Virus record (IMG/VR): IMGVR_UViG_3300020577_010124
Coordinates: 1-64,000 of that record
Origin: a virus
Lineage: Duplodnaviria; Caudoviricetes
Direction: 5' to 3' (one strand)
DNA length: 64,000 nucleotides
Every line of letters starts with the position of its first letter. Position 1 is the stretch's first letter. The position numbers and the translations under genes were made by a program. The notes below the pieces were generated by a model. The model was not told the DNA's origin. It made no database searches and saw only the letters and a program-made list of their open reading frames with translations. Below are positions 4,473 to 36,988 of this stretch, one piece after another.

Positions 4473-4546
4473 TGCGGAGTAGAGAAGTGGTCATCTCGCT
4501 AGCCTCATAAGCTGGAAATCGTGTGTTCGAATCACACCTCTCGCTA
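4473..4546 (+). tRNA. tRNA with CAT anticodon (Met, initiator-like features)
   Basis: Cloverleaf: D stem GAGA/TCTC, anticodon stem CTAGC/GCTGG with loop CTCATAA, T arm GTGTG-TTCGAAT-CACAC. Acceptor stem has one extra base; no encoded CCA. Confidence 0.9.
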
Positions 4547-4557
4547 CTAATACCCCT

Positions 4558-4609
4558 CCAAGGAGCGATCCTTGGCTCGACGCTCGCAGCAATGCGGGCG
4601 TTTATTTTT
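4558..4609 (+). terminator. Tandem GNRA hairpins / terminator after tRNA
   Basis: ccaagga-GCGA-tccttgg, then cgctcgca-GCAA-tgcgggcg-tttattttt. Confidence 0.7.
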
Positions 4610-4624
4610 GTCGATATTCAATTC

Positions 4625-18203: not shown

Positions 18204-20057
18204 ATGCCATCAGCAGTAAAAATAGTAAGAACTTTGAAAGAGCTTGTAGATGTAGCCGTCTCGTCTCCGAGCAGCGGACAAGCTCTTGTATATAATTCAA
18301 CAACCCAAAAATGGGAGAACGCTAACGTTTCAGGAACAGGAGACGGTAGTAGTGGTTTCTCAGGATATAGCAGTCGTTCGGGTTTTAGTGGTTATTCAAG
18401 TACATCAGGTTTTTCTGGTTATAGTTCTACTTCTGGCTTTAGTGGATATAGCTCAACAAGTGGGTTGTCAGGTTTTAGCGGGTACTCCGCCGCAAGCGGA
18501 TTTTCTGGTTATAGTGGCAGATCAGGAGCAGGCGGCGCTCCAGGTCCGCAAGGGTTTCCAGGCGGAGATAGTTTATATATTTTCTACAATGATAATCACG
18601 CAGGAGTTGATCCAGGTGAAGGATATTTTACTTCTGATGATGGAGATTTTACATCAACAAGTGCTCTTAATTTTAGTTATACAGATGGACTCGGAACAAA
18701 TGTAATTGATTGGGTTAGAGCGCTTGATGATAGTACAAATAGTATAAAAGGTGTTCTTCGATTTTATACTATTGGCGATTATACGCAATATGTTGATTTT
18801 TATATTACTGGGGTTCTGACGGATCATACAACCTATGCGACTCTTCAAGTAGGTTTCTCAAGCGGTACATTAGCATCTGCGCCTCCCGCTGAAACTGAAA
18901 TGATTGTTAGTTTTGTAAGAATAGGAGATTCTGGTCGTAGTGGCTATTCTGGTTATAGTGGTAAATCAGGTTTCTCTGGATATTCAGGTGCAGGAGGATC
19001 AGGTTTCTCTGGTTATAGCGGAGCAGGAACTTCTGGTTTTTCGGGTTATTCTGGTAATGGTAGCTCAGGTTTTAGTGGTTATTCAGGCGCTGGTGGTTCT
19101 GGATTTTCAGGTTATAGCGGAGCAGGTGGATCTGGATTTAGTGGTTACTCTGGAACAGGTATATCAGGTTTTTCTGGTTATTCAGGAGGGGGAATTTCGG
19201 GCTTTAGTGGTTATTCTTCTATAAGCTCAAGCGGTTTTTCGGGATATTCTGGCACTGGTGGATCAGGATTCTCGGGATATTCTGGCGCTGGTGGTTCTGG
19301 CTTTTCAGGTTATAGTGGAGCAGGCGGATCTGGATTTAGTGGTTACTCTGGAAATGGAATAAGCGGTTTTTCAGGTTATTCAAGCGTTGGCGTATCTGGA
19401 TTTTCAGGTTATTCTGGCCAAAGCGGTTTTTCAGGCTATAGTGGTAGGTCTGGCTTTAGTGGTTATAGTTCTATTTCAGGTTTTTCAGGTTATTCAGCAG
19501 CGTCAGGTTTTAGTGGTTATAGCGGAAAGAGTGGATATTCAGGTTATTCTGGGCTTTCTGGTTTTAGTGGTATGTCGTCTTCTACAACTCCTGCTTATGG
19601 AGAAATACTTTATACAGGCGATGGAGTTAGCGGTTGGACTTATGATGGTTCGGGAGATTGGGACGTAATAGATGGTCTTGGAGCGGGATCGTCTTCTTCA
19701 ACAACTTTATCAACATCTTCGATTACTGCAAACTCTAGCGGAGCTTTTTTAGTAACTTGTAGTCTTTCTTTTAGAGCTACTTCAGAGGAAGATTCCTATA
19801 TATTTGCTATATTCAAGAATGGCTCTGTAACAAATATATCTACAAGAAATTGGACAGAATATAACAATGGAGCTACTTCTTATTTTTCTGTATCTCTAAC
19901 AGGTATTCTTGTTCTAGCTGCCGATGACTATATAGAGGTTCGAGCTAAAAATCTAACCGATACAGACAATATTAATCTTTGGAGAGCCAATTTTGCGCTT
20001 TCTGCGATTGGTTCTAGTTCTGATAGTTCTTTGTCAGCACTATGGTTTATGGGGTGA
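18204..20057 (+). CDS. SGFSGY-repeat fibre protein with C-terminal BclA-C/C1q-like domain
   Basis: Same N-terminal anchor motif, one knob domain, repeats; C-terminal AYGEI..SITANSSGAFLVTCSLSF..FAIFKNG..SLTGILVLAADDYIEV pattern. Confidence 0.7.
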   Translation: MPSAVKIVRTLKELVDVAVSSPSSGQALVYNSTTQKWENANVSGTGDGSSGFSGYSSRSGFSGYSSTSGFSGYSSTSGFSGYSSTSGLSGFSGYSAASGFSGYSGRSGAGGAPGPQGFPGGDSLYIFYNDNHAGVDPGEGYFTSDDGDFTSTSALNFSYTDGLGTNVIDWVRALDDSTNSIKGVLRFYTIGDYTQYVDFYITGVLTDHTTYATLQVGFSSGTLASAPPAETEMIVSFVRIGDSGRSGYSGYSGKSGFSGYSGAGGSGFSGYSGAGTSGFSGYSGNGSSGFSGYSGAGGSGFSGYSGAGGSGFSGYSGTGISGFSGYSGGGISGFSGYSSISSSGFSGYSGTGGSGFSGYSGAGGSGFSGYSGAGGSGFSGYSGNGISGFSGYSSVGVSGFSGYSGQSGFSGYSGRSGFSGYSSISGFSGYSAASGFSGYSGKSGYSGYSGLSGFSGMSSSTTPAYGEILYTGDGVSGWTYDGSGDWDVIDGLGAGSSSSTTLSTSSITANSSGAFLVTCSLSFRATSEEDSYIFAIFKNGSVTNISTRNWTEYNNGATSYFSVSLTGILVLAADDYIEVRAKNLTDTDNINLWRANFALSAIGSSSDSSLSALWFMG

Positions 20058-20875: not shown

Positions 20876-21204
20876 TGCCACAAACATTCAAATCAATATG
20901 TAGTAATCTTTCTTCAACATCTCTTACGAGTTTGTATACTGTAGCTTCGTCAACAACGGCCATAGTAAAGAGTTTGTATATTGGAAATGTTGACGCTTCA
21001 AACTCGTCAACGATTGACGTATGTATTCGAAAAAGTGGCGGCGGAGCCGATGTTTACATTATCAAAACGGCTCTAGTTCCAATACAATCTTCTTTGCAAG
21101 TTATTACCGAACCTATAGTTTTAGAGGATGGAGATGTATTAAAGGTAAAAGCTGCTGATTCTAATAGACTAGACGTATCGCTTTCGTACTTAGAGATAAC
21201 CTAA
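20875..21204 (+). CDS. Small virion beta-protein
   Basis: LYTVASSTTAIVKSLYIGN..IVLEDGDVLKV..SYLEIT, a common fibre-associated small protein pattern. Confidence 0.55.
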   Translation: MPQTFKSICSNLSSTSLTSLYTVASSTTAIVKSLYIGNVDASNSSTIDVCIRKSGGGADVYIIKTALVPIQSSLQVITEPIVLEDGDVLKVKAADSNRLDVSLSYLEIT

Positions 21205-22254: not shown

Positions 22255-25200
22255 TTGAATACAGACCCACGAAAAATTAAATATTCGATTGTTATTCCTA
22301 CCTACAATCATCTTGAAGATTGTCTCAAGCCTTGCCTTGAAAGCATAATCAAGTATACTGACTTGTCAAATGTTGAAGTTATCATTGTGGCAAATGGCTG
22401 CAATGATCGTACTTCGCAATACGTAAATAGCTTAGGCGATCCGTTCAAACTTATTTGGATGGATAAGCCTTCAGGTTACATAAAACCAACGAACGAAGGT
22501 ATACGCCAATCAAAAGGCGAGTATATCGTATTGCTCAATAACGATATTGTGCTTTGTAATCAACAAAAAAACGTTTGGCTTCAAATGCTAGAGAAGCCAT
22601 TTGAAAATCCTAAAACTGGCATATCTGGACCATACAAAGATATTAGATTTGCTTGGGATGATAACAAAATAACGTTTCGTCAACACTATATGGTTTTTTA
22701 TTGCGCAATGGTGCGAAAGCAAACGTTCCAAGAGCTAGGTTTGCTGGATGAAGGATTTGGTCTTGGATATGAAGAGGATATTGATTTTTGTATACGCTTG
22801 GAAAACTCAGGTCTATCTTTGGTTCAAGTTCCAGAAGATATGCATTATGATCTAAATATTACAAAAGATTATTTGATTCATAATCCAAATATCAATACCA
22901 AATTCCCTATTTATCACAAAGATAAGATAACTTTTCAGGAAATTACACATGACAGCACTAGAGAGCCAAATCTATTGCTAAGGAAACATCAAATGATCCC
23001 TAAATATTCGATTATCATTCCAACATATAACCATCTCGAAGATTGTTTGAAGCCTTGTCTTGAAAGCATAATCAAGCATACGGATCTTACCAACGTAGAA
23101 GTTATCATTGTGGCAAATGGATGCACAGATGGTACAAGAGACTATGTTCATAGTTTAGGGCATCCTTTTAAGTTGTTGTGGATAGACGAACCTTCGGGAT
23201 ATACTAAATCAACTAACGAAGGCATCAAAGTCGCTATGGGCGAGTATGTCATACTTGTTAATAACGATATGGTGTTCTTGTCTCAAGAAAAGAGTCGTTG
23301 GATTTCGATGCTAGAGGCTCCATTTTTGTCAGATAAATCAGTTGGTATAACAGGCGCAGCAAAGAACTTTCATGAAGAAACTCAATTCAACTTTCTGTTG
23401 TTCTTTTGTGTTATGATTAAGTGGGAGACAATCAAGAAATTCGGATTGCTTGACGAGATATTTAATCCTGGATATGGAGAAGATATTGATTATTGTTGGA
23501 AGCTTCATAATGCAGGTTTGAAGGTTGTTCAAGTTCCAAATGATGCTTCATTCTCCAAGGTTCGAGACGCAGAAGATCATGTTATTTATTTTCCGATATG
23601 GCATAAATCAAGCCAGACAGTTCATAGCGTACCAGGATGGTCGGAAATAGTTGCGAGAAACGAAAGAATACTTATGGATAGATACGGAAAATACCCTAAT
23701 AGAAGAATACTCCCTGAATGGGAAAAAGCTCTCGATGCAGGGCAAAAAATAGAAGCTGAACTCAATGAAAGAACCAAACTAACTGTTGTTAGCAAAGAGT
23801 CTTTGGACGGTATTTTCCGTGATGAATCTGTTGTTGCCAATTCTGTCAAGAAAGATAGACCAATCATTTCTTCTTATAATGACATCTATTCTTATGTTTT
23901 AGATGTTGGTTCTAAGCATGCAGGCTTTTTTGGAGCTAAATATACAGGAGGATATTGTCTACAACAAAACCCAGAAGAGATAAGTCGTTTTCTTTTTGAT
24001 TTCAAAGATCTTGATATAAAGAACTATTTGGAGATTGGATGTGCAGACGGAGGTGTTACGAGACTTCTTTGCGACGTTCTGAAAATAGAGAATGTTTACA
24101 CTATTGACCTTGGATGGAAAGACGGCGACAATCCCAATTCTTATAGAGATGGAATAGACAATCTAAAGAATTCGGGCAAGATAAACATTTTTAGAGGCAA
24201 TAGTCACTCTAAAGAAGCAGAACAATTCCTAGAGGAATCAGGTAAGCAGTTTGATGTTATTTTTATTGACGCTGACCATACTTTTGAAGCTGTAATGAGA
24301 GATACCGCTCTTGCCGTAAAATATGCAAAGCCAAATACTATTTTTGTTTATCATGATCATGCATTTGTTGAGGGAGTTTATCGCTTCTTCCAACACCTAC
24401 TTAAGCCAAATGAGTTCAACTTGACGTTTATAAACGATTATGTACACTCAGATCCTCAAGTCCGAAAGGGACTGGCTGTTTTTCGTTTTGAAGGTAAGCC
24501 TCAAACTCAAAAGCCAAAGGTCTACGATTGCTTTACGTTCTATAATGAGTTTGATTTGCTTGAAATACGTTTGAACGAACTAGATAGCGTTGTTGATAAG
24601 TTTGTTCTTGTAGAAGCCAAGCATAGTTTTCAAGGCAAACCAAAGCCTCTCTATTTCAGAGACAACAAAGAGCGATTCAAAAAATTCTTACACAAGATAG
24701 AGCATGTTATTGTTGATGAGTTTCCTCCAACAGATAATCACTGGCACCGAGAACATTTTCAGCGAAACGCTATTGTTCGAGGATTGAATGGTTGTAAAGA
24801 CAATGACATTATCATTATCTCAGATGTTGACGAGATACCTAGAAGCAATGTTATTGAAAGATACAATCCTGCTCATGGTATTGTAAATCTTGCTCAAGAT
24901 GTTTTTTACTATTATTTCAATTGCAAATGTCATAATAATTGGGTTCAACCTAAGATATTGACATATGCTATTCTAAAAACAACAAGTCCAGAAGAAGTTC
25001 GACATCTTCATGGTAAGGCTCATCTTCCATTGATGGAAAACGCAGGATGGCATTTTTCTTACTTAGGTAATGTTGATTGGATTATCAATAAGATAGAGTC
25101 TTTTAGTCATACAGAATACAATACAGACGAGTTCAAAAACAAAGAGCATGTTCTTCGTTGTATCGCTAACGGTAAAGATTTGTTCAATCGCTTCGATCCT

Positions 25201-28200
25201 ACATTTGTAGAAGTTGATGATAGTTTTCCTGAATACCTCAAAGATAATCTTTTGAGATTTGCCTCTAAAGGACTAGTTAAGTCTCTTGGTTCTAATCAAC
25301 TACCTGAAGGATGGTTTGGGGATAAGGATATTGAAGTTTATAGAAAGATAGTATCTTTCTTGCCCGAAGGAAGCTCAATGGCAGAAGTCGGTGTATGGAA
25401 GGGTAGATCTTTGTGTTCTTTGGAAGATATTATAAAGAACAGATCTCTTAGCGTTACTGCTGTTGATAATTTTGCAGGATCTATTGCCGAATCTGTTATT
25501 GCTGAAATGGCGCAAAAAGAAAACATCAAGCTAACATTCCAAAAGAATATAATCAACTATGGTTTACAAAACAACATTGTAGTTATTGATAAGCCGTCTG
25601 AAGAAGCAGCCAAACTGGTTGCTGACGATTCTTTGGCTTTGATTTTTATTGATGCAGATCATACTTATGATAGCGTATCTCAGGATATTTCTTTCTGGCT
25701 TCCAAAGCTAAAAGCAGGCGGAATAATAGCAGGCCACGATTTTATGTATTCGCCTGGCGTTCGTCAAGCTGTTATTGAATGGTTTGAGGGTAAGTTCACT
25801 GTTGATGGTAACATATGGTATGCAGGTAAAGAGTCTGTAAAAATTCCATCTCCTAAGAAAACTCCTAAATATTCGATTGTTATTCCTACCTATAACCATC
25901 TTGAAGATTGCTTGAAACCTTGTCTTGAGAGTTTGAAAAAGTATACAGAACTATCAACAGTTGAGGTTATTGTTGTAGCTAATGGATGTACAGATGGTAC
26001 AAAAGCTTATGTTGAAAGCCTAGGCGATCCATTTAAGCTTATCTGGATGGACAAGCCTTCGGGATACATAAAGCCAACGAATCTTGGCATCAAATCTGCC
26101 AAAGGCGAGTATGTAATTCTGCTTAATAATGATACCGAACTAAATCCTCAGCATAAAAATTTCTGGATTGACATACTTGAGAAGCCATTTATTGACAACC
26201 CTTCGGTTGGTATTTCTGGCCCAAGAAAAGCTTGGAATGAATGCGTTGAGCATGAATATTTAATTTTCTTCTGCGTTATGATGAGAAGATCATTGTTTGA
26301 AGAAATAGGATTACTTGACGAGTCATTTGGAATTGGATATCATGAGGATATTGATTTTTGTATCAATGCTCAAAAGGCTGGGTATAAACTCGCCGAAGTC
26401 CCTTATGATGTAACATATACCAAAGAAAACATGGGCAATGAGGGTAGAGACTGTCCATTCCCTATGAGACATGCGGGAGGTTCTACCTTCTGGGAAATCT
26501 ATCATAATCGCCAAGAAGAAAGACTAAAAGCAAATACTCAGCGACTACTTGAAAAATATAAACCCCATCCAAGAGTTTATGATTGTTTTTCATTCTTCAA
26601 TGAGCTAGACGTACTTGAGATACGACTGAATGAACTAGATAGCGTTGTTGATAGATTTGTTTTGGTAGAAGCAAGGTATACCCATCAAGGGCAGCCTAAG
26701 CCTTTATATTTTGAGCAAAACAAAGAACGATTCAAAAAATTCTTACACAAGATAGAGCATGTTATTGTTGATGATTTTCCTGAAACAGATGATACATGGG
26801 TACGAGAACCATATCAGAGAAATTGCGCCTATAGAGGTCTTAAGAATTGCAAAGATAATGATATAATCATTCTCTCTGATATTGACGAGATTCCTAGAGC
26901 TAGCGCTGTTAAACAGTATAAACCAGAAATGGGGTTGACATGCATACAGACAAATCTGTATTCATATAAATTAAACTACCTTTGTCCAATAAAGTGGTAC
27001 AAGCTTCGTATTTTTACCTTTGCTGAAATCAAAGGAGGCGATCTTCAGCAGTTTAGAGGAAGTCGAGATTACGATTACAAAACAACGATTGAGAATGGCG
27101 GATGGCATTTTAGTTTTATTGGTAATAAAGAGCATATTATTCAGAAAATTGAAAGCTATGCTCACGTAGAATTCAATAATGATGAAGTAAAGAACGATCA
27201 AAACGTTGCTAATGCTATCAATAAAGGACAAGATGTATTTGGTAGGGGTATTCAGTTTACCGCTGTAGAGATTGACGATTCGTTCCCTCAATTTGTACGC
27301 GATAATTTAGAGTATTACAAGAGTAAAGATCTTATAGCAGAAACTAAAACTAAATTGCAGAAGTTCCATGACATTCTATTAGCTTCTAACTGGGGAGTTT
27401 TTAACGAGATATACAATCTAGATGTATATAAAATGGAAGAAAAAGATGTTAGAAACAAAACAGTTATAGACGTAGGTGCTTTTCATGGGCATTTTGCTTT
27501 TAGAGCTTTAGAGATGGGAGCTAATAGCGTTTATTGTTTTGAGCCTCAACCAGATAATTATGTTCGCTTTATTCGCAACTGTGAAGCATATGTTTCTATT
27601 TATGGAGATAAGCCCAAGGTTGATGCAAATAATCTTGCCGTATGGGATGGTTCTTGTCCGCAAATGAATATTTCCGCAAGCGAGGATGGAAGTTGTTTTT
27701 GGGGAAATAGAGATACAAAAACGGTATCATGCGTTTCTTTGAATGAAGTTATGAAAAACATAGGCTTCTCTGGCGATATGGTTTTGAAACTAGATTGCGA
27801 AGGAGCAGAGTTTGAAATACTATACAATTCAAGCGCAAATATGATAAAGAGATTCTCTATCATATATCTAGAGATACATGATAATCTTAATCCTAAATAC
27901 ATAAACAAGAGCAAAGAGCTTTTGGGTTATATGGCAAACCTAGGCTTTGTTGTTGAAAGCATTGGACCTCAAGCTGGATGGTTTGGCGCAGACGGCTCAT
28001 TTACTCCTGCCCCTGTTATATGCGTCAAGTTGCGAAATACGTATCCATCTAAAGATGAAATAACTATTGGATATATAGATCATGACCAAGAGGTTTTTAG
28101 TAAATATCTAAAGCCAAGCCTTAGCAAGTCAGGTGTTTCTAGTATTTCAGTTTCTTCACAATCTTCGGGAGCAAAAAGTTACAACAAGATTTTGGATGAA

Positions 28201-31200
28201 GCTAAGACGAAGTACGTTTTGTTTTTGCATCAAGACGTTGGATTTGGTCCTGGATTGATTGAGGCGATAGAAAAATCAATAGAAGCGCATCCTAATTTTG
28301 GCGCAATGGGAATAGTTGGATTTGATTTTGCTAACAATACAATATGGTCAAGTCCAGATGTTTGTAAAGAAGTTGAAAGATTTGACGCATGTTGCTTGCT
28401 TGTAAATAAAGAGCATGGAATCAGATTTGATGAAAAGACTTTTGATGATTTGCATTTCTATGTTGAAGATTATTGTATGCAGACAATAGCTAGGGGTCTT
28501 AAAAACTACACGATGGCCTATCCGTCTTGGCAGTTTGACGAAGACGAAAGCTTCGATGTAAACAAGAAGTACATGAAGCATATTGGTAGTACCTACAAAA
28601 AGGCTGGTAATAAGATGTGGGGGAAATATGGAGAACATAGCCATAAATTCGCGGAAAAATGGAATAATCGACCAAAATACTCCATTATCATTCCTACCTA
28701 CAACCATCTTGAAGACGCTCTAAAGCCCTGTATCGAAAGTCTTTCTAGACATACAGACCTTTCCAACGTAGAGGTTATAGTTGTTGCAAATGGATGTGTA
28801 GACGGCACAAGAGACTATGTAAATTCTCTTGGAAATCCATTCAAGCTTCTTTGGATAGAAGAGCAAGCAGGATATACTCGCGCAACCAATGAGGGTATCA
28901 AAATCGCTAGAGGCGAATACATCATTCTACTCAATAATGATGTATATTTGCTAGATTATCAACAGAAGAACGAATGGATAGATTTGCTTGTTGAACCATT
29001 TCTGAAAGATTCCAAAGTTGGAATAACTGGACCTCTCAAGGGGCAATGTCCTTATAGAGATGCAGATAAGATCCCAGGCGACGATTTTATGATTTTCTTT
29101 TGCGTAATGATGCGAAAGAGTTTGTTCGATCAGATTGGCTTATTGGATGAGGATTTTAGTCCAGGGGCGGGCGAGGATACCGAGTTTAGTTGGAGAGCAA
29201 TTGACGCTGGATATAGCCTTGTTCAAGTTCCTCATAATGATAGTAATTTGCATGGAGCTACCAAGTATGCTAAAGGTATGTATCCAATGTTTCATCATTC
29301 AGGAAAAACAAGAGGCGATGACTTTGAGAGAGTCAAAATCAACAATGTTAAGTTACTTCAAAAGCTAAAAACAAAGAATCTGCGTATTCAATTTACTAAA
29401 GGCCATAAGCTAGATGGATTCTTTACAGCAGACATGGACAACCCTTTAGCGAATCTTATGCTTGACGCAAGAAAAATCAATCTTGCTAATGATAGCGTTA
29501 TTGAAATCATTTGCGACAAGTTCTTGGAGCGTTATTCTGAAAACGAGTTGTTTTCTGCCCTTTCAGAATGTCATAGAGTTTTGGTTTGTAAGGGCAAGGT
29601 TTCTTTGTCAACAAATGACGGAGGTAAGGATGTTTTTGTAAGTAATCTTTTGCGAGTTGGTTTTGTTGATGTAAAAGCAAACTACTCTAACGGAGTTACT
29701 TGGGTAAGCGCTACCAAGAAGGCGATTGATAAGCCAAAGGTTTATGATTGTTTTTCATTTTTCAATGAACTAGATTTGCTTGAGATACGATTGAATGAAC
29801 TAGGTCCATATGTTGATCATTTTGTTCTTTCAGAAATGACAGTAACTCATTCTGGCAAACCAAAGCCATTGTATTTTAACGAGAACAAAGAACGTTTCAA
29901 AAAATTCTGGCACAAGATAATCCATGTCATTGTTGATGACTGTCCAGACGCTAGCGACCCTTGGATAAGAGAGCATTTTCAAAGAGACGCAGTTGCTAAT
30001 GGTCTAGTCAAATGCAAAGACAACGATATCATAATCGTTTCAGATCTTGACGAAATCCCTAGAGGCTCGAAGATATCTCAGTATAAAGATCAAAAAGCTT
30101 GGATGTTCTTTGAGCAACATCAATACAACTACTATCTAAATATGAGCGTTGGCGTAAGTCCAATTACGCCAGGCACGTTCAGTCGTATAACAACATATAA
30201 GGCGTTAAAAGATATAGGTCTAAAGCCTACTGCTTTGAGATATGCTGAATGTATGGAGTCTGATAGAATTCCAGACGGTGGATGGCATTTTAGCTGGATG
30301 GGTGGGGCTGCAAACATAGTTACCAAACTAGAGTCTTGGGCGCATCAAGAACTAAATCGTCCTGAGTTTAAAGACGTACAAAAGATAGAAGATAACATAG
30401 AAAATGAAATTGAAGCTTTAGGCAGACCTGACGCTCCCCATAAACCCAGGTTCGTTGAAGTAGATTCAACGTTTCCTAAGTTCATTATTGATAACAAGCA
30501 ATCGTTTATAGACAAAAAACTAATAAAGGTTTGTAACGCAAAGCCAAAGGTCGCTATTGTAATGCCTTACTATAATGACTCTGAGCTTTTGGTCCGCTCG
30601 GTTATGGGAATAGTTGGACAGTCTTTTAGAGATTGGACATTGTTCTTGGTTGATGATGGATCTCAAGAGGATAAGAAGGCTAGAAAGGTTCTTGGTCAGC
30701 ATGTTGACAAAAGAATCGTAATAATAGATAAGCAAAACGGAGGCGTAAGTTCTGCAAGAAATGTTGCGCTAGAAAGGATACGATCTGACGGATCGTTTAC
30801 TCATGTTGCTTATTGTGATTCTGACGACATATGGACTGAAGGATATTTGCAATCTCAAGTCAATCATACGCAATTTTGCGATTTTAGCTATTCTGAAGTA
30901 GAACATGAGTACGATAACGGCTCGAAGGCATATCCAATAGGTATATTAAATCCTGACGAGTATCCTGGACTTGAGTACATGAAAAGTGCTGCGTTCATTT
31001 TTATATCAAGTGTTGTTCATAAGGTAAAGTGTTTGTCGGTTGGAGATTTTGATAGCTCAATCAACTCTATTGAAGATTGGGATATGTGGGTTCGTATGGC
31101 TAAGGAAGGCTATTCTTTCAAAAAGAATAAGTCTGCCAAAATCATTTATATTGTGAAAACTCAAAGCAATATGGCTTCCAAACGAACTCCTGAAATCTTT

Positions 31201-31227
31201 GAAAGATTCAAAAAAAAACACTTGTAA
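22255..31227 (+). CDS. Multidomain glycosyltransferase/methyltransferase polyprotein
   Basis: Four KYSI.IPTYNHLED GT2 domains, a terminal GT2, a GT2-like domain (ITIGYIDHD..LHQD), three VYDCF.F.NE.D.LEIRLNEL..SD.DEIP..GWHFS GT17-like domains, two LEIG/EVG..FIDADH MTases, an FkbM-like MTase (IDVGA..KLDCEGAE) and a degenerate MTase. Start codon (TTG) uncertain. Confidence 0.9.
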   Translation: MNTDPRKIKYSIVIPTYNHLEDCLKPCLESIIKYTDLSNVEVIIVANGCNDRTSQYVNSLGDPFKLIWMDKPSGYIKPTNEGIRQSKGEYIVLLNNDIVLCNQQKNVWLQMLEKPFENPKTGISGPYKDIRFAWDDNKITFRQHYMVFYCAMVRKQTFQELGLLDEGFGLGYEEDIDFCIRLENSGLSLVQVPEDMHYDLNITKDYLIHNPNINTKFPIYHKDKITFQEITHDSTREPNLLLRKHQMIPKYSIIIPTYNHLEDCLKPCLESIIKHTDLTNVEVIIVANGCTDGTRDYVHSLGHPFKLLWIDEPSGYTKSTNEGIKVAMGEYVILVNNDMVFLSQEKSRWISMLEAPFLSDKSVGITGAAKNFHEETQFNFLLFFCVMIKWETIKKFGLLDEIFNPGYGEDIDYCWKLHNAGLKVVQVPNDASFSKVRDAEDHVIYFPIWHKSSQTVHSVPGWSEIVARNERILMDRYGKYPNRRILPEWEKALDAGQKIEAELNERTKLTVVSKESLDGIFRDESVVANSVKKDRPIISSYNDIYSYVLDVGSKHAGFFGAKYTGGYCLQQNPEEISRFLFDFKDLDIKNYLEIGCADGGVTRLLCDVLKIENVYTIDLGWKDGDNPNSYRDGIDNLKNSGKINIFRGNSHSKEAEQFLEESGKQFDVIFIDADHTFEAVMRDTALAVKYAKPNTIFVYHDHAFVEGVYRFFQHLLKPNEFNLTFINDYVHSDPQVRKGLAVFRFEGKPQTQKPKVYDCFTFYNEFDLLEIRLNELDSVVDKFVLVEAKHSFQGKPKPLYFRDNKERFKKFLHKIEHVIVDEFPPTDNHWHREHFQRNAIVRGLNGCKDNDIIIISDVDEIPRSNVIERYNPAHGIVNLAQDVFYYYFNCKCHNNWVQPKILTYAILKTTSPEEVRHLHGKAHLPLMENAGWHFSYLGNVDWIINKIESFSHTEYNTDEFKNKEHVLRCIANGKDLFNRFDPTFVEVDDSFPEYLKDNLLRFASKGLVKSLGSNQLPEGWFGDKDIEVYRKIVSFLPEGSSMAEVGVWKGRSLCSLEDIIKNRSLSVTAVDNFAGSIAESVIAEMAQKENIKLTFQKNIINYGLQNNIVVIDKPSEEAAKLVADDSLALIFIDADHTYDSVSQDISFWLPKLKAGGIIAGHDFMYSPGVRQAVIEWFEGKFTVDGNIWYAGKESVKIPSPKKTPKYSIVIPTYNHLEDCLKPCLESLKKYTELSTVEVIVVANGCTDGTKAYVESLGDPFKLIWMDKPSGYIKPTNLGIKSAKGEYVILLNNDTELNPQHKNFWIDILEKPFIDNPSVGISGPRKAWNECVEHEYLIFFCVMMRRSLFEEIGLLDESFGIGYHEDIDFCINAQKAGYKLAEVPYDVTYTKENMGNEGRDCPFPMRHAGGSTFWEIYHNRQEERLKANTQRLLEKYKPHPRVYDCFSFFNELDVLEIRLNELDSVVDRFVLVEARYTHQGQPKPLYFEQNKERFKKFLHKIEHVIVDDFPETDDTWVREPYQRNCAYRGLKNCKDNDIIILSDIDEIPRASAVKQYKPEMGLTCIQTNLYSYKLNYLCPIKWYKLRIFTFAEIKGGDLQQFRGSRDYDYKTTIENGGWHFSFIGNKEHIIQKIESYAHVEFNNDEVKNDQNVANAINKGQDVFGRGIQFTAVEIDDSFPQFVRDNLEYYKSKDLIAETKTKLQKFHDILLASNWGVFNEIYNLDVYKMEEKDVRNKTVIDVGAFHGHFAFRALEMGANSVYCFEPQPDNYVRFIRNCEAYVSIYGDKPKVDANNLAVWDGSCPQMNISASEDGSCFWGNRDTKTVSCVSLNEVMKNIGFSGDMVLKLDCEGAEFEILYNSSANMIKRFSIIYLEIHDNLNPKYINKSKELLGYMANLGFVVESIGPQAGWFGADGSFTPAPVICVKLRNTYPSKDEITIGYIDHDQEVFSKYLKPSLSKSGVSSISVSSQSSGAKSYNKILDEAKTKYVLFLHQDVGFGPGLIEAIEKSIEAHPNFGAMGIVGFDFANNTIWSSPDVCKEVERFDACCLLVNKEHGIRFDEKTFDDLHFYVEDYCMQTIARGLKNYTMAYPSWQFDEDESFDVNKKYMKHIGSTYKKAGNKMWGKYGEHSHKFAEKWNNRPKYSIIIPTYNHLEDALKPCIESLSRHTDLSNVEVIVVANGCVDGTRDYVNSLGNPFKLLWIEEQAGYTRATNEGIKIARGEYIILLNNDVYLLDYQQKNEWIDLLVEPFLKDSKVGITGPLKGQCPYRDADKIPGDDFMIFFCVMMRKSLFDQIGLLDEDFSPGAGEDTEFSWRAIDAGYSLVQVPHNDSNLHGATKYAKGMYPMFHHSGKTRGDDFERVKINNVKLLQKLKTKNLRIQFTKGHKLDGFFTADMDNPLANLMLDARKINLANDSVIEIICDKFLERYSENELFSALSECHRVLVCKGKVSLSTNDGGKDVFVSNLLRVGFVDVKANYSNGVTWVSATKKAIDKPKVYDCFSFFNELDLLEIRLNELGPYVDHFVLSEMTVTHSGKPKPLYFNENKERFKKFWHKIIHVIVDDCPDASDPWIREHFQRDAVANGLVKCKDNDIIIVSDLDEIPRGSKISQYKDQKAWMFFEQHQYNYYLNMSVGVSPITPGTFSRITTYKALKDIGLKPTALRYAECMESDRIPDGGWHFSWMGGAANIVTKLESWAHQELNRPEFKDVQKIEDNIENEIEALGRPDAPHKPRFVEVDSTFPKFIIDNKQSFIDKKLIKVCNAKPKVAIVMPYYNDSELLVRSVMGIVGQSFRDWTLFLVDDGSQEDKKARKVLGQHVDKRIVIIDKQNGGVSSARNVALERIRSDGSFTHVAYCDSDDIWTEGYLQSQVNHTQFCDFSYSEVEHEYDNGSKAYPIGILNPDEYPGLEYMKSAAFIFISSVVHKVKCLSVGDFDSSINSIEDWDMWVRMAKEGYSFKKNKSAKIIYIVKTQSNMASKRTPEIFERFKKKHL

Positions 31228-32009
31228 TCGGTCGCAATTGGAAGTTCTTGGATTACTTGGTTCCATGCGTTGATAGCATTCTTAGTTACAACGACAATGT
31301 TGATCTAATAGTAGTTGACAGCAAATCTTCAAGATCAGAAACAATCAAGGCCTATTGCAATCGCCTATTGAAGCATGGCGATATTCGAGGCTTCATTCAG
31401 TCAGATAAAAACTATCTTGGTAATCTATGGAAAGTCAATAGCTATCTAAGTCATATTTTTGAGCAATATGACTATATTTGTATGACAGATTTAGATTTGA
31501 AGATTGTTTCGCCTACGAAAAACTGGCTAGAAAAACTGACCAATATACTAGATAGACGACAAGATATAGGGGCGGTATCAATTGATTTTGAACCGATGCC
31601 ACCTATATCTGATCATTTTGTCTTTGCTAAAGATCATCCAGAGCTAAAGATTGAAGGGGAAGATTTTTGGAACATGCTTACGGACGGATGGTTTTATACA
31701 GTTCGTAAATCTGATTTTATGGAATATCTACGTAATAGTAATGGACAGATGGGGCCAGGCATGCATGGCTATAACGAGTTTTGCTATTCAAGAGGTAAGA
31801 TGATAGGAAGAACCAATATCATTGCCACTCATTATGGATGGTTGAGATACGATAAGGAATGGAAGTCCGCATACGACGAATGCGGAATTGATTTCAGACT
31901 AGAAACTTCAGATCGTAACAATCATTCATATCTTGAGTTACAAGGCAACTGGAATGGTCGAACAGCTATGCCTACAAAAGATTCGTTTACAATGAATGGA
32001 GACTTATGA
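31203..32009 (+). CDS. GT2-like domain, probably joined to the polyprotein by a -1 shift at an A9 run
   Basis: The -1 frame is open from 31203 and reads KTLVIGRNWKFLDYLVPCVDSIL..LIVVDS..MTDLD; there is no ATG or RBS before it. Confidence 0.7.
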   Translation, partial: KIQKKTLVIGRNWKFLDYLVPCVDSILSYNDNVDLIVVDSKSSRSETIKAYCNRLLKHGDIRGFIQSDKNYLGNLWKVNSYLSHIFEQYDYICMTDLDLKIVSPTKNWLEKLTNILDRRQDIGAVSIDFEPMPPISDHFVFAKDHPELKIEGEDFWNMLTDGWFYTVRKSDFMEYLRNSNGQMGPGMHGYNEFCYSRGKMIGRTNIIATHYGWLRYDKEWKSAYDECGIDFRLETSDRNNHSYLELQGNWNGRTAMPTKDSFTMNGDL

Positions 32010-32974
32010 AAATAGTTGTAACTGGCGGAGCGGGGTTTATTGGTTCAAATTTTATTCGATTACTTCTTCGCGCTGATAAATCAGTAAGAGTTGTTAATGT
32101 TGATAAGCTTACTTATGCAGGAAGCCTTGCTTCGGTTTCTGATTTAGACCCCAATAGACACTCCTTAATACTTGCAGATATTTGCGATAAATCAGGAATG
32201 TCTTCTATAATAGAACAAGGCGATGTTGTTGTTAATTTTGCGGCAGAAAGTCATGTAGATAATTCTATTGCAAATGCTAACGTGTTTTTAGAAACAAACA
32301 TAACAGGAGTTCAAAATCTTCTTACAGTAAGTCGAGAAAAAGAAGCCGCTTTGTTTTTGCAAGTTTCTACAGACGAAGTGTATGGTTCCTTGGATTATCA
32401 CCAATGCTCTTCTAAAGAAACCGATGTTCTTATTCCTTCTTCTCCTTATAGCGCTTCTAAAGCAGCAGGCGAGATGATGTGCTTTGCTGCCATGAAAACA
32501 TATGGGCAACCTGTAATCATAACAAGATCCTCAAATAACTATGGACCTTATCAATATCCTGAAAAAATGATTCCTCGGTTCATAACTAATCTCATGCGAG
32601 GAGAAAAAGTTCCCTTGTATGGAAACGGAAAGAACGTGCGAGATTGGATTTTTGTTGAAGATAATTGCGAAGCAATTCTGTCCGTTATCTATGATGGCGT
32701 TGTTGGAGAAATTTATAACATTGGTGGCGGCAATGAGTTAATGAATTTTGAACTAACCCAAATGATTCTTGAGCATATGGGAAAGGATAGCTCGTCCATA
32801 GAATATGTAAAAGACCGCCTTGGACATGATTTGCGATACTCTGTGGATTCTTCTAAGATAAAGCAGCTTGGATGGAAGCCTAAAACAGATTTTCATGAAG
32901 GTTTGGCAAAAACAATACAGTGGTATAAGACAAATACAGAATGGTTGCGTCTTCTTTCTGAAAGAAACATATGA
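32006..32974 (+). CDS. rfbB: dTDP-glucose 4,6-dehydratase
   Basis: GGAGFIG, DKLTYAG, AAESHVD, STDEVYG, YSASK, RDWIFVED, DRLGHDLRY. Confidence 0.97.
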   Translation: MKIVVTGGAGFIGSNFIRLLLRADKSVRVVNVDKLTYAGSLASVSDLDPNRHSLILADICDKSGMSSIIEQGDVVVNFAAESHVDNSIANANVFLETNITGVQNLLTVSREKEAALFLQVSTDEVYGSLDYHQCSSKETDVLIPSSPYSASKAAGEMMCFAAMKTYGQPVIITRSSNNYGPYQYPEKMIPRFITNLMRGEKVPLYGNGKNVRDWIFVEDNCEAILSVIYDGVVGEIYNIGGGNELMNFELTQMILEHMGKDSSSIEYVKDRLGHDLRYSVDSSKIKQLGWKPKTDFHEGLAKTIQWYKTNTEWLRLLSERNI

Positions 32975-33795
32975 AATACCTAATCGTTGGCAATGGATAC
33001 CTTGGAAATCAGATAGCAAAAGCTCTTGACGGAGTTGTATGTACTGAAAAAGTTACAACTCAAAGTTCAATCAGCAGCTATATTTGGAGCCATCAACCAG
33101 TTTGCGTAATCAATTGCGTTGGTAAAACTGGTAAACCAAATGTTGATTGGTGCGAAAGCAATCAAGAAGAAACGTTCTTTTCGAATGTTGTTGTTCCTAG
33201 TTACATATGGAACGCTTGTAATCAATTTAAAGTAAAGATGGTTCATATTGGTAGTGGCTGTATCTATAGTGGCGATAATGAAGGTAAAGGATATTCAGAA
33301 GAAGATGTTCCAAATTTTGACGGAAGCTATTATAGTTGGACTAAGATTGTTTCAGAGAGATTTTTGAAATCCCATGACGTACTTCAGCTTCGTATTCGTA
33401 TGCCAATGAGCGATGAATATAACCCAAGAAATCTAGTAACCAAACTGCTTGGTTACAAAAAAGTTTTGAGCGAACCAAACTCAATAACATATGTTCCTGA
33501 TATGATTGAGGTACTGCGTCAGCTTTTGGATAAAGACGCTACAGGCATTTATAACGTTGTAAATAAGGGACCAATGCTGCATCCTTCGATAATTGATACG
33601 TATAAAGCGTTGACAGGAAATACTGATTTGCTTTATGAAATCATTGGACTTCAAGAGCTTGATAGTTTGATTGTCGCAAAGAGATCAAACTGCGTGTTGT
33701 CTATAGATAAATTGGAAAAACTTGGGATATCTATGCCAGAAGCTAAAGATGCCGTTTATCGTTGTATTTCTAAATACGTAGAAAGCGAGAAGTAA
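32971..33795 (+). CDS. NDP-4-keto-6-deoxyglucose 3,5-epimerase/4-reductase (NRS/ER / RmlD-like)
   Basis: GNGYLG, GKTGKPNVDWCE, GCIY, EED.PNF.GSYYS.TK, LRIRMP, NPRNLVTKL, PNSIT. Confidence 0.85.
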   Translation: MKYLIVGNGYLGNQIAKALDGVVCTEKVTTQSSISSYIWSHQPVCVINCVGKTGKPNVDWCESNQEETFFSNVVVPSYIWNACNQFKVKMVHIGSGCIYSGDNEGKGYSEEDVPNFDGSYYSWTKIVSERFLKSHDVLQLRIRMPMSDEYNPRNLVTKLLGYKKVLSEPNSITYVPDMIEVLRQLLDKDATGIYNVVNKGPMLHPSIIDTYKALTGNTDLLYEIIGLQELDSLIVAKRSNCVLSIDKLEKLGISMPEAKDAVYRCISKYVESEK

Positions 33796-33796
33796 T

Positions 33797-34534
33797 ATGA
33801 AGGGAGTATTGTTGGCGGGCGGCTCAGGTACTCGATTGTTGCCTCTTACAAAGGTTACAAATAAGCATCTGTTACCAGTTTATAACAAACCAATGATTTA
33901 TTATCCACTCAATACATTGAAAAGCATGGGTATTGAGGAGGTTTTGATTGTCTCGGGACGAGATCATTGCGGACATATTCTTCAGCTTCTAGGAAGCGGT
34001 AAAGAGTTTGGCATGAGCATTTCTTATGAAATCCAAGAAGAGGCAGGAGGTATTGCTCAGGCTCTAAGTCTTGCCGAAGGATTTGCAAAAGGAGATAATA
34101 TCGCAGTTATACTTGGAGATAATATCTTTGAGGATAAGTTTGATATAAGCGATTTTCAACTGCGATCAAAACAAGAAGGCGCTCGTCTTTTTTTGAAAGA
34201 GACAACTAATCCAGAGCGATTTGGAGTTGCTCAAATCGTTAAAGACGAAATTATTTGCGTTGTTGAGAAGCCTAAAACCTATGTTTCAAATCTTGCGGTT
34301 ACGGGATTGTATATTTACGATCAAAGCGTGTTTCATTTTATTAAAGAACTTCGTCCTTCTAAGAGAGGCGAGCTTGAAATAACAGATGTGAACAACCGCT
34401 ATATACAACAGGGTACGGTAAGTTTTCGCATGGTTCATGGAGAGTGGACCGACGCAGGCACGTTTGAAAGCCTTCATCGAGCTAATATTTTAGCCAAAAA
34501 CATTTCGGAACAATCTAATGAATTTGTCTCATAA
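33797..34534 (+). CDS. rfbA: Glucose-1-phosphate thymidylyltransferase (short form)
   Basis: LAGGSGTRLLPLT..NKHLLPVYNKPMIYYPL, GDN, EKP, RGELEITD, WTDAGT. Confidence 0.97.
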   Translation: MKGVLLAGGSGTRLLPLTKVTNKHLLPVYNKPMIYYPLNTLKSMGIEEVLIVSGRDHCGHILQLLGSGKEFGMSISYEIQEEAGGIAQALSLAEGFAKGDNIAVILGDNIFEDKFDISDFQLRSKQEGARLFLKETTNPERFGVAQIVKDEIICVVEKPKTYVSNLAVTGLYIYDQSVFHFIKELRPSKRGELEITDVNNRYIQQGTVSFRMVHGEWTDAGTFESLHRANILAKNISEQSNEFVS

Positions 34535-35945
34535 GAGAATGGCATTGTGTCTATCAGGGCAAGCAAGGGCAGTCAAGGCTTGTCTTTCGTCTATTCAGGA
34601 TTGCATAATAAAACCATTTGGTCACGTTGATGTTTTTATACACACATGGTTTGTTGATAAATACTCTACTGATAAATTCAACGTTAGCGGTCTAGAGACT
34701 TCAAATGTTTTTGATTGCTCTTTGCAAGAATATCTTGATTGCTATAATCCAGCTTCAGTAGCAATAGAAGATTTTGCTCGTTCTAAATATTTTCATTGTA
34801 ATAATCTATCAGATAGAGTTAGAATTGCTTTTTATGTTATTCATAAAAGTAATCAAGTAAAAAGAGAATATGAAATAGAGAATAATCTTAATTATGATTA
34901 CGTAATTCGATGTCGAACTGATTTGAAGTTTGAAAGAAGACTTACAGAACAAGATCTTGAGTGCGTAAATGATGGTTCTATTTTGATTCCGTCTATGCTA
35001 GATTTTGGAGGAGTTAACGATCAGTTTGCTATTGGAACGCCTACAAGCATGAATAAATATGCGTCTTTGCATAATCGTTTAGACAAGTATCTATTTGTAG
35101 ACGGATTACCTTATGATCCAGAACGGCTAATGAAACATCATATTAATTCTATGAATCTTGAGCTTCATAGATTTCGTTTTGATTATAGTATAGTCAAGAA
35201 AAGTATGAAGTATCCGCCAGGAAAAGGATACATAGTAACTGACACGCCAGAAGTCAAAAAGTATTTGACAATGCAGAAAGATTCTTATGACAGTCAAGGT
35301 TCTCATTGGACAGTAAATGCTAAAGATTATGTAGTTGGTAGTTATGAAGCTCATAATCGTTGGGCAGACTATGACTTGTTATTATTCAAAGGTTTTGATA
35401 CAAAAGGCTTGGTTGCTTTGGAGTATGGATGTGGACCAGGTCGAAATCTGATTCGTTTCAAAGATCGCTTTAGTCGCATAGACGGCGTTGATATTTCTTC
35501 AGTTGTTTTGGACAAAGCAAGAGAAAACTTAGAACACGAGCATTTGCCTATACCAAATCTTGTTCTTTCAGACGGCAAAAGTATTGACAGAGATGATCAT
35601 TCTTATGACGTTGTGTTTTCTGTGATATGTATGCAGCATATATGTGTTCATGAGATTCGATACAATATTTTCAAAGAGATATATAGAGTTCTGAAGCCAG
35701 GTGGATATATGTGTATCCAGATGGGTTTTGGCGGAAAATATGTCGAAATAACATGGGCCAAGTATAAAGAAAACTGCTATGACGCAACAGCAACAAACGG
35801 TTTTTATGATGTCTCGATTGAGAATGAAGACGAGCTAAAACGAGATCTTTACGAGATAGGTTTCAAGAATTATAAGTCCGATATTGCTCAGACAGGGCCA
35901 GGCGATAATCATAGAAACTGGATTTGGTTTCAAGTACAAAAGTAA
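34518..35945 (+). CDS. Putative glycosyltransferase-like domain fused to class I SAM methyltransferase
   Basis: N-terminal ALCLSGQAR..DVFIHTW..YDYVIRCRTD..NDQFAIG; C-terminal LEYGCGPGR..GVDIS..RVLKPGG. Confidence 0.75.
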   Translation: MNLSHKRMALCLSGQARAVKACLSSIQDCIIKPFGHVDVFIHTWFVDKYSTDKFNVSGLETSNVFDCSLQEYLDCYNPASVAIEDFARSKYFHCNNLSDRVRIAFYVIHKSNQVKREYEIENNLNYDYVIRCRTDLKFERRLTEQDLECVNDGSILIPSMLDFGGVNDQFAIGTPTSMNKYASLHNRLDKYLFVDGLPYDPERLMKHHINSMNLELHRFRFDYSIVKKSMKYPPGKGYIVTDTPEVKKYLTMQKDSYDSQGSHWTVNAKDYVVGSYEAHNRWADYDLLLFKGFDTKGLVALEYGCGPGRNLIRFKDRFSRIDGVDISSVVLDKARENLEHEHLPIPNLVLSDGKSIDRDDHSYDVVFSVICMQHICVHEIRYNIFKEIYRVLKPGGYMCIQMGFGGKYVEITWAKYKENCYDATATNGFYDVSIENEDELKRDLYEIGFKNYKSDIAQTGPGDNHRNWIWFQVQK

Positions 35946-35953
35946 GGAAATGC

Positions 35954-36988
35954 ATGACTTCTCAAGTAGACGTAACAGTTGAAATATCAACAAAAGACAG
36001 ATATTACACGACCTTGCCAATCGCTCTTGTTTCAGTAGCGAATCAAACATACAAGCCTAAAAAGGTTCTTGTTTTTGACGACGGAGAGGGAAAAGATCTT
36101 AGAGAAGATCCGCTTTATTCTAGTATCTTTGCCCTATATGCTTCTAAGAATATAGATCTAGTTGTTATGTTTGGGCAAAAGAAAGGCCAAGTTCATAATC
36201 ATCAGGGCGCTATTTCTTTAGCAACAACTGAATGGATTTGGCGAATAGACGACGACGATGCGCCTGAAGCAAATGTTCTAGAAAAAATGGTTCGTCATAT
36301 TCGAGACGACGTTGGAGCTATTAGCGGTTTAGTTCTTGTTCCAGGCGAGTTTAGCGAAGATATGGGAGAAGGGTCTGGTAAGATAGAAGATATTTTTACA
36401 AAGCCTCATATCCAATGGTTCAAGTTTTCAGGGGTCAAAGAAGTTGATCATCTAAATAATACCTTTCTATTTCGCAAATCAGCAGTTAAGCATGGTTATT
36501 GCATGGAGTTATCACCCGTAGGTCATAGAGAAGAGACTATGTTTACCTATGAGATAAAACTAGCAGGATACAAGCTTCTTGTTGATTCTGAGGCGGTCAT
36601 TTGGCATCTTCGTTCTCCGAAGGGTGGTATTCGATCTTATGAGCATGCATTCTTTTGGGACCATGACGAAAGAATATTCCAAAGAAAGCTTGAGGAGTAT
36701 GGGGTCAAATCGAAGCTAGAAAAACTTATTGTTTTAGATTGCGGACTTGGAGATCATTATGCTTTCAAAATGATGCTACCAGAAGTCAAAGAAAAATACA
36801 AAGACCAAAACCTTGTTCTAGCAGTATGTTATCCAGAAGTCTTTACTGACGAGAATGTAAGACTTATCTCAATTGCTGAAGCAAAGACTCTTGAGAAGAA
36901 TATGGATAAGCATAATGTCTATAAATTTATGATGGATAGAAATTGGACAGGTCGCCTTGTAGACGCATACAGAAAGATGATACTATGA
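35954..36988 (+). CDS. GT2 glycosyltransferase fused to GT9-like N-terminal half
   Basis: VTVEISTKDR..VFDDG..RIDDD..HREET; C-terminal LDCGLGDH..CYPEVF. Start ATG 35954 with RBS. Confidence 0.8.
   Translation: MTSQVDVTVEISTKDRYYTTLPIALVSVANQTYKPKKVLVFDDGEGKDLREDPLYSSIFALYASKNIDLVVMFGQKKGQVHNHQGAISLATTEWIWRIDDDDAPEANVLEKMVRHIRDDVGAISGLVLVPGEFSEDMGEGSGKIEDIFTKPHIQWFKFSGVKEVDHLNNTFLFRKSAVKHGYCMELSPVGHREETMFTYEIKLAGYKLLVDSEAVIWHLRSPKGGIRSYEHAFFWDHDERIFQRKLEEYGVKSKLEKLIVLDCGLGDHYAFKMMLPEVKEKYKDQNLVLAVCYPEVFTDENVRLISIAEAKTLEKNMDKHNVYKFMMDRNWTGRLVDAYRKMIL

Follow-up and report, generated by a model that had tools for sequence, protein, structure and literature searches.

The closest described counterparts of the protein reported here are soluble enzymes in which glycosyltransferase (GT) and methyltransferase domains are joined in one chain. 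A064R of PBCV-1 (638 amino acids, aa) combines two rhamnosyltransferase domains with an S-adenosylmethionine (SAM)-dependent 2-O-methyltransferase and both makes and caps the terminal part of the capsid glycan, while A111/114R of the same virus has 860 aa and three domains; a review lists at most four predicted GT domains in a single giant-virus protein. In Geobacillus stearothermophilus, the soluble WsaE unites two rhamnosyltransferase domains and an O-methyltransferase, acts on the S-layer glycan and is encoded in an rml cluster. Here we describe a gene at 22255..31227 (+ strand) of a 64,000-nucleotide stretch of phage DNA (positions 1 to 64,000 of IMG/VR virus record IMGVR_UViG_3300020577_010124, hereafter the window), which encodes a 13-domain protein of 2990 aa, hereafter the giant GT. 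Characterised multi-domain GTs have two or three catalytic domains and are already called unusual. A single chain with nine apparently intact GTs and three methyltransferases lies three- to four-fold beyond them, and its scale is unprecedented among described enzymes. A preliminary description of the window had likened the protein to A064R, and the likeness holds in that both are virus-encoded soluble polypeptides with at least two GT domains and a methyltransferase; A111/114R likewise is virus-encoded, and both PBCV-1 proteins lack a signal peptide and fuse several transferase domains, as the giant GT does. However, A064R and A111/114R have three domains rather than 13, belong to a virus of a eukaryotic host and serve N-linked capsid glycans. 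Moreover, A064R is biochemically proven whereas the 2990-aa protein is known from sequence alone, and the domains of A064R are not of the GT2a or GT17 types that recur in the giant GT. WsaE resembles the phage protein as a soluble GT/methyltransferase fusion near rml genes, but it has three domains and no GT17.

The gene is a single unbroken open reading frame (ORF) of the length given in the preliminary description. It starts with TTG, directly preceded by an in-frame TGA at 22249, and stops with TAA. The closest relative shares both the TTG and the motif preceding it; more distant relatives use an ATG that lies a few codons downstream, at a conserved KYSIIIPTY strand. The chain was cut at borders obtained by chunked self-BLAST, and each of the resulting 13 pieces (ending at aa 247, 500, 745, 1015, 1199, 1437, 1705, 1925, 2138, 2375, 2486, 2768 and 2990) was scanned with Pfam. 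Twelve of the 13 pieces scored above the curated cut-offs, the 111-residue piece called domain X having no match, and a Pfam scan of the whole protein returned GT2 in six stretches, GT17 in three, Methyltransf_24 (MT24) in two, and FkbM. The resulting order (GT2, GT2, MT24, GT17, MT24, GT2, GT17, FkbM, GT2_5, GT2, X, GT17, GT2) is identical to the one previously read from motifs, every domain start agreeing within ~20 nucleotides (Table 1). Scores were 23.6-76.6 bits for the six domains matching PF00535 (cut-off 23.3), 48.2 bits for the GT2_5 domain with PF13712 (cut-off 27), 131.8, 118.7 and 109.1 bits for the three GT17 domains with PF04724 (cut-off 26; profile positions ~70-300), and 53.9, 75.7 and 53.9 bits for the three intact methyltransferases, each over its cut-off. 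Family hidden Markov models span each domain almost end to end; aa 481-562 (~80 residues) is the sole stretch without a domain match, and GT or methyltransferase domains cover ~97% of the chain. The domains abut with essentially no linkers, as at 247/248, 1014/1016, 2138/2139 and 2375/2376.

The conservation of catalytic motifs was assessed in alignments of 102 GT2a, 66 GT17, 30 MT24, 38 FkbM, 15 GT2c and 8 GT2_5 domain instances taken from 36 relatives. All 12 Pfam-matched domains retain every position that is at least 90% conserved in their family alignment. The conserved motifs are IPT, VANG, llNnD, G.lDE..g..eD.d and fP..H in GT2a; yDcF.F.nE, sD.DEIp, GWHFs and H.E in GT17; E.G...G, FiD.dH and HD in MT24; and D.Ga..G and LK.DcEG.E in FkbM. 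The acidic motifs (NND with E/G-ED-x-D/E in the four GT2a domains, CDSDD with EDWD in GT2c, and HQD with EDY in GT2_5) are conserved at 70-90% or more, and SAM motif I of the intact methyltransferases reads E-x-G-x-x-x-G or D-x-G-A-x-x-G. By this criterion none of the 12 domains appears dead and all are predicted to be intact enzymes, contrary to a picture in which most of the chain is catalytically inert. The nearest solved structures to GT2c are GalT1 (5hea) and the chondroitin polymerase K4CP; the structure of A064R domain 1 was not among the Protein Data Bank (PDB) sequence matches of GT2a or GT2c, a search in which A064R itself was not compared directly. For GT17, neither the single sequence nor a 16-sequence profile found a sequence relative in the PDB. 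An AlphaFold2 (AF2) model of domain 4 predicted a GT-A fold (predicted local distance difference test, pLDDT, 93), and a Foldseek search with this model matched mostly GT-A glycosyltransferases with probability 1.0 but a TMq of only ~0.45, which marks them as distant neighbours. The D-x-D-E-I-P motif was invariant across the 16 GT17 sequences.

Domain X (aa 2376-2486), which Pfam left unmatched, required other methods. An exhaustive search gave nine weak remote homologues, and all eight that were scanned carry Methyltransf_11 (PF08241). In the alignment, LRIQFTKG takes the place of the homologues' SAM loop LNLGxG, and the loops of two close relatives are equally glycine-poor (LRLHLTKN and LKINFINA). 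The AF2 model of domain X had a pLDDT of 84.5, and nearly all of its Foldseek matches listed had the SAM-methyltransferase fold (SAMTOR, Trm11, METTL6; probability 1.0, TMq 0.55-0.72). Homologues, alignment and model thus agree with the earlier reading of a degenerate methyltransferase: as modelled, domain X is a class I methyltransferase fold with a decayed glycine-rich SAM loop, and it probably no longer binds SAM and is non-catalytic.

Since a gene with four GT2a and three GT17 repeats might be created by an assembler joining repeated sequences, we considered whether the 2990-aa ORF is such an artefact, and we give this virtually no credence. The repeated domains share merely 63-78% DNA identity with one another, too diverged to mislead an assembler, as the preliminary description had argued. 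Furthermore, an independent assembly from another sample (Logan SRR10761721, contig L001) encodes a near-twin of 2997 aa with the same 13-domain order, 78% protein identity and the same flanking genes. No transmembrane segment was predicted in a 19-residue Kyte-Doolittle scan of the whole chain, because the highest mean is only 1.45, below the usual membrane-helix threshold of 1.6 over 19 residues; the earlier statement that no such segment is evident is borne out.

A length-matched search revealed that the protein is not the one-off it first seemed but stands at the upper end of a recurrent huge-phage family. At least 36 metagenomic proteins of 1644-2997 aa have the same domain mix, and annotation of the relatives with the domains of the 2990-aa protein gave 28 distinct architectures of 4-13 domains, counts that are lower bounds in that only this protein's domain types were modelled and other methyltransferase types were left out. 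The 2990-aa protein and its near-twin have the most domains. Only weak ordering rules emerged. GT2a leads 24 of the 28 architectures, X is always preceded by GT2a, the chains commonly close with GT17 followed by GT2c, and a triad of GT2a, MT24 and GT17 occurs repeatedly. Tandems of GT2-GT2 and of GT17-GT17 are frequent, and otherwise one domain type follows another about as often as chance would predict. A strict alternation of GT and methyltransferase domains, suggested by the single protein in the preliminary description, is thereby ruled out as a rule of the family. The likeness to nonribosomal peptide synthetases and polyketide synthases drawn there survives as a loose analogy only, because no carrier or tethering domain is present: 15 Pfam families were matched in the 2990-aa protein, with no PP-binding or other carrier family among them. 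In domain trees, the three GT17 copies and the four GT2a copies each fall in a separate clade shared with domains of other proteins; the GT2a of domain 1 groups with the relatives' N-terminal GT2, and the GT17 of domain 12 with the relatives' last GT17 (99% local support). These trees rule out that the repeats arose by recent duplication within the gene. Since the copies cluster with other proteins' domains and not with each other, the protein is, on the trees, a concatenation of old specialised enzyme types. It may be read as three triads plus extras and a terminal GT2c, namely [GT2a] GT2a-MT24-GT17, MT24-GT2a-GT17 and [FkbM-GT2_5] GT2a-X-GT17, then GT2c.

A GT17 profile was used to scan IMG/VR, and at least 313 viral loci were confirmed. 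Among the best 79, GT17 stands alone in 62 (~250-300 aa), is part of a three-domain GT2a-MT24-GT17 protein in 7 and belongs to proteins with 5-12 domains in 10, so that viral contigs hold a continuous series from lone GT17 genes through three-domain fusions to the 13-domain chain. One stand-alone GT17-like gene was located in a giant-virus metagenome-assembled genome (MAG; L061). A separate class of giant multi-GT proteins occurs in bacteria, where 1700-4327-aa proteins carry tetratricopeptide (TPR) repeats, radical-SAM and several GT2/GT4 domains; one of them, from a Thermodesulfobacteriota MAG, is annotated only as 'glycosyltransferase'. A megablast of 20 kb around the giant gene against a phage collection gave no match, and the literature searched held no description of these phage fusions, an incomplete search that is not proof of their being unpublished. 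The preliminary description had known of none this large in a phage; that no published account was found agrees with this, but the 2997-aa near-twin and some 35 other metagenomic relatives of 1650-2950 aa show that the size is not confined to one genome. The protein is a real and extreme member of a recurrent family, and apparently a fully functional one, as judged from its motifs.

Table 1. Domains of the giant GT and neighbouring features of the window (positions count from the first nucleotide of the window).
Feature	Residues (aa)	Coordinates	Strand	Evidence and remarks
Domain 1: GT2 (GT2a copy 1)	7-247	22273..22995	+	PF00535 E 4e-19
Domain 2: GT2a copy 2	248-480	22996..23694	+	Pfam GT2 E 1e-18
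Domain 3: SAM methyltransferase (Methyltransf_24, TylF-like)	563-736	23941..24462	+	Pfam E 4e-14; motifs EIGCADGG, FIDADH, HD
Domain 4: GT17-like copy 1	748-1014	24496..25296	+	PF04724 E 4e-38; motifs YDCF.F.NE, SDVDEIP, GWHFS, H.E
Domain 5: Methyltransf_24 copy 2	1016-1197	25300..25845	+	Pfam E 6e-21; motifs EVGVWKGR, FIDADH, HD
Domain 6: GT2a copy 3	1203-1438	25861..26568	+	Pfam GT2 E 3e-21
Domain 7: GT17-like copy 2	~1439-1700	26569..27354	+	Pfam E 4e-34
Domain 8: FkbM-type methyltransferase (Methyltransf_21)	1708-1921	27376..28017	+	Pfam E 3e-14; motifs DVGAFHGHF, EP, LKLDCEGAE
Domain 9: Glyco_tranf_2_5-type GT-A domain (GT2_5)	1928-2138	28036..28668	+	PF13712 E 1e-12; motifs HQDV, YVEDYC
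Domain 10: GT2a copy 4	2139-2375	28669..29379	+	Pfam GT2 E 3e-20
Domain 11 (X): compact class I methyltransferase-like, degenerate SAM loop (predicted)	2376-2486	29380..29712	+	No Pfam match
Domain 12: GT17-like copy 3	2488-2763	29716..30543	+	Pfam E 3e-31
Domain 13: GT2 of different subtype (GT2c)	2769-2990	30559..31224	+	PF00535 E 3e-15; motifs DDGS, CDSDDIW, IEDWDMW
GT4 glycosyltransferase, possible priming transferase		4523..6025	+	Block conserved upstream of giant GT in L005
2562-aa Gly/Ser/Phe/Tyr-rich collagen-like fibre protein, candidate acceptor		8176..15864	+	SGFSGY repeats
617-aa collagen-like fibre protein, candidate acceptor		18204..20057	+	
GT2-like ORF, 268 aa if read from 31203		31203..32009	+	-1 frame relative to giant gene
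RmlB (dTDP-glucose 4,6-dehydratase), RmlD-like reductase, RmlA-like thymidylyltransferase		32006..34534	+	RmlB passes NCBIfam equivalog cut-off
DUF7796 + SAM-methyltransferase protein, then further GT2 gene		34518..36988	+	Pfam
614-aa collagen-like fibre protein, candidate acceptor		37537..39381	+	28% Ser, 28% Gly

The window belongs to an IMG/VR virus record with a length of 170,562 bp. CheckV puts its completeness at 34%, which implies a phage genome of roughly half a megabase. All genes of the window lie on one strand, with tail-fibre PHROG matches, PhoH and a homing endonuclease among them. No terminase was found in the 170 kb of the record, and the contig of one relative has a terminase and a T4-type portal adjoining its giant GT; the phage identity of the locus follows from the IMG/VR record, the tail-fibre PHROGs and this terminase/portal pair. 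An actin-fold protein is encoded at 51633-52706 (+) (Pfam Volactin, E 1.9e-62, 212 bits against a cut-off of 35), adjoining a LAGLIDADG endonuclease gene at 50819-51643.

The neighbourhood of the giant gene suggests a target. Three collagen-like proteins are encoded in the window; they contain 23-28% Ser and 21-28% Gly in regular SGFSGY-type triplets and match collagen-like tail-fibre PHROGs. They are nearly without Pro and have globular inserts, an unusual proline-free triplet repeat, and in the relatives' collagen-like proteins the repeat is SGYSGY, with 15% Tyr and Phe near 0. In four of the five relatives' contigs (L001, L003, L004 and L005), collagen-like proteins with 17-30% Ser lie within 10 kb of the giant GT. 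We therefore propose, at even confidence, that the giant GT is a soluble cytoplasmic multi-enzyme that O-glycosylates the phage's own Ser-rich collagen-like virion fibres. The activity, donors, acceptor, product and reason for fusion that we infer are as follows. Nine GT domains of predicted GT-A fold (four paralogous GT2a, one GT2_5, one GT2c and three paralogous GT17) would each form one specific linkage, and three intact methyltransferases (two TylF-like, one FkbM) would each O-methylate one specific sugar, so that the giant protein and the neighbouring single-domain GTs together would build a methylated hetero-oligosaccharide containing a 6-deoxyhexose. Its donors would include deoxythymidine diphosphate (dTDP)-sugars from the adjacent RmlA-, RmlB- and RmlD-like genes, the probable donor supply. 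Genes for dTDP-sugars also adjoin the fusions in viral contigs; in L002, an inserted LAGLIDADG endonuclease gene separates the RmlD-like gene from the RmlA-like one. Priming could plausibly be done by the GT4. The glycan would be built directly on Ser hydroxyls of the SGFSGY-type fibres, in the host cytoplasm, before or during virion assembly. Because virion parts assemble in the cytoplasm, a lipid-linked periplasmic route could not reach the fibres, and therefore a fibre target and independence of a lipid carrier go together. Fusion could fix the stoichiometry and proximity of the enzymes on a long repetitive acceptor, and domain types shuffled between related phages could diversify the glycan.

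The GT4 gene itself is part of a block that comprises two further genes and an S8 subtilase at 7300-8163 (4523-8163, +). This block recurs upstream of the giant GT at L005:5791-9413, in a relative for which the best local alignment spans only 8% of the query (64% identity), and it probably belongs to the same fibre-decoration system. Collagen-like Ser-rich neighbours were also counted at the IMG/VR loci, where they accompany 11 of the 17 multi-domain loci, as against 5 of the 62 with a lone GT17 gene (Fisher p = 4e-6, a value that overstates independence, as the multi-domain loci compared are phylogenetically related).

This relatedness is one of several points that weigh against fibre glycosylation as proposed here. 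The sole link between the giant GT and the fibres is gene neighbourhood, and in L002, from a close relative, no collagen-like ORF lies nearer than 10 kb. GT2a has VANG at the position where an Asp binds the nucleotide in many GT2 enzymes; since VANG is conserved family-wide in GT2a, it is probably functional. The deoxysugar is not necessarily rhamnose, because no RmlC (dTDP-sugar 3,5-epimerase) was found in the 170 kb; it may be rhamnose if the host assists in its synthesis, or a different 6-deoxyhexose. The preliminary description had taken the missing transmembrane segment to mean probable independence of a lipid carrier, a step that is insufficient since soluble GTs working on lipid-linked acceptors, such as WsaE, likewise have none. 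Finally, absent export and priming genes count as weak evidence, since the record is ~34% complete.

The main rival to fibre glycosylation is an action on undecaprenyl-linked host glycans (O-antigen, capsule or S-layer), with the giant GT as a peripheral-membrane polymerase/terminator like WsaE or WbdA/WbdD; the surface of the infected cell would then be remodelled, for example to block superinfection, rather than the virion decorated. We regard this reading as unlikely. WsaE gives it a precedent, as a soluble fusion, encoded in an rml cluster, that lengthens a lipid-linked rhamnan and ends it with a 2-O-methyl cap, and the missing transmembrane segment is compatible with it; in addition, Iyer et al. 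interpreted clusters of glycosyltransferases in jumbo cyanophages as modifiers of outer polysaccharides. However, the WsaE-dependent chain is exported by Wzm/Wzt and transferred by WsaB, and such parts were not found in the phage: the 170 kb yielded no priming phosphoglycosyl transferase, WecA-type enzyme, Wzy_C ligase/polymerase or ABC-2 exporter, weak evidence in a record of this completeness and with host genes that could serve. Moreover, fibre and virion genes surround the giant gene, its counterparts in relatives occur together with collagen-like proteins rich in Ser, and nine different GT domains suit a complex defined oligosaccharide more than a repeat-unit polymerase.

Whichever the target, the chain, with an estimated mass of ~340 kDa, could be a polyprotein that a protease, such as the S8 subtilase, cuts into separate enzymes. 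The peptidase gene has indeed been kept close to the giant GT in both the window and L005, and GT17 genes stand alone at 62 of the 79 best viral loci; but no cleavage motif was identified, domains that abut nearly without linkers leave little room for cleavage sites, and fusion is retained in 28 architectures, which together make processing quite improbable. Still more remote is a glycan hypermodification of phage DNA on hydroxymethylated bases. TylF-like and FkbM methyltransferases are typical of sugar O-methylation, which counts against it, and the genomic setting is structural, not replicative. Furthermore, no thymidylate-synthase homologue that might act as a hydroxymethylase was found in the 170 kb, nor was TET/JBP, although the latter search carries little weight as its control was empty in every genome. 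In favour of a DNA target, the last GT2 weakly matches the TET-associated glycosyltransferase family PF20691 (E 3e-4; 21.3 bits, below the cut-off of 27.5), and DNA-hypermodifying phage glycosyltransferases are known (Pyle et al. 2024, cited in PMC12619734).

Glycosylation of fibres by the giant GT would have partial parallels among systems that modify surface proteins. Bacillus BclA is linked with a rhamnose operon. In streptococci, GtfA/B, Gtf3 and dGT1 work stepwise and independently of lipid, a GT4 enzyme starting the glycan and GT-A enzymes extending it, with one two-domain fusion. Serine-rich-repeat adhesins are O-glycosylated there in the cytoplasm (PMC5207161), and the phage locus is similar in that its GT4 is conserved with the giant GT and could make the start; the streptococcal enzymes, however, are separate and small, their acceptor is exported via the accessory Sec system, and no methyltransferases take part. 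Clostridioides difficile SgtA O-glycosylates the collagen-like BclA3, and its gene adjoins that of the surface protein as in the phage locus (PMC7157674). BclA3 and Bacillus BclA are spore proteins with GXT repeats in which Thr is glycosylated, by small enzymes without GT17 and without a nine-GT chain. Mycobacteriophage GTs decorate their phages' own structural proteins (Freeman et al. 2023, cited in PMC12619734); these are one or two small GT genes that target the C-termini of capsid and tail-tube proteins, with no multi-domain fusions. GnT-III (MGAT3), on which CAZy GT17 was founded, resides in the Golgi as a type II membrane protein and attaches the bisecting N-acetylglucosamine (GlcNAc) to N-glycans. 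The phage GT17 domains share its PF04724 match but are soluble, fused and encoded by a phage, and because the host is bacterial, beta-1,4-GlcNAc transfer to an N-glycan core mannose is unlikely to be their activity.

Further genes next to the giant gene may contribute to the system. The GT2-like ORF that overlaps its end contains a run of nine A residues (A9) at 31210-31218, conserved in the window and L001, and a conserved N-terminal strand, TLVIGRNWKF, upstream of its first canonical start, a TTG at 31248. Among the relatives, only L001 has the ORF (12578-13384, 74% identity), there with its own ATG overlapping the stop of the giant gene (ATGA), and in 84 loci the ORF was never fused to the giant gene. 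Translation might begin with an ATT at 31206, the product might be truncated, or slippage might join it to the giant protein; the ORF may thus be part of the system in the form of a separate enzyme. The downstream GT2 (about 340-350 aa) is conserved 3' of the giant gene in L001-L005. On the upstream side, a 329-aa ORF at 21204-22193 (+) matched nothing in Pfam, PHROG or NCBIfam. In L001 and L002 a 330-aa counterpart immediately precedes the giant GT, and the ORF could encode a partner not yet recognised, for example an adaptor, a chaperone or a further transferase.

The family offers a natural experiment on why glycan-building enzymes fuse, and with it a large soluble set of GT2 and GT17 domains without a solved structural relative; for GT17, the PDB gave not even a relative by sequence. 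This family is usually regarded as that of the eukaryotic GnT-III, and it proves to be common in phages, with at least 313 loci in IMG/VR. The locus also provides a testable case of huge phages coating their own fibres with complex methylated glycans; if the fibres are so coated, host recognition, particle stability, and recognition by immune systems or grazers would be affected. More tentatively, and on balance doubtfully, these proteins may be soluble, lipid-independent assembly lines in which the set of domains, drawn from an alphabet of four GT2a, three GT17, GT2c, GT2_5, MT24 and FkbM types, specifies a defined methylated oligosaccharide on Ser-rich fibres, and recombination of domains between phages rewrites the virion glycocalyx. 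If true, this would be a protein-level counterpart of O-antigen locus variation, and if the structure of the glycan can be predicted from the domain set, the family would provide a ready-made toolkit for cytoplasmic glycoengineering.

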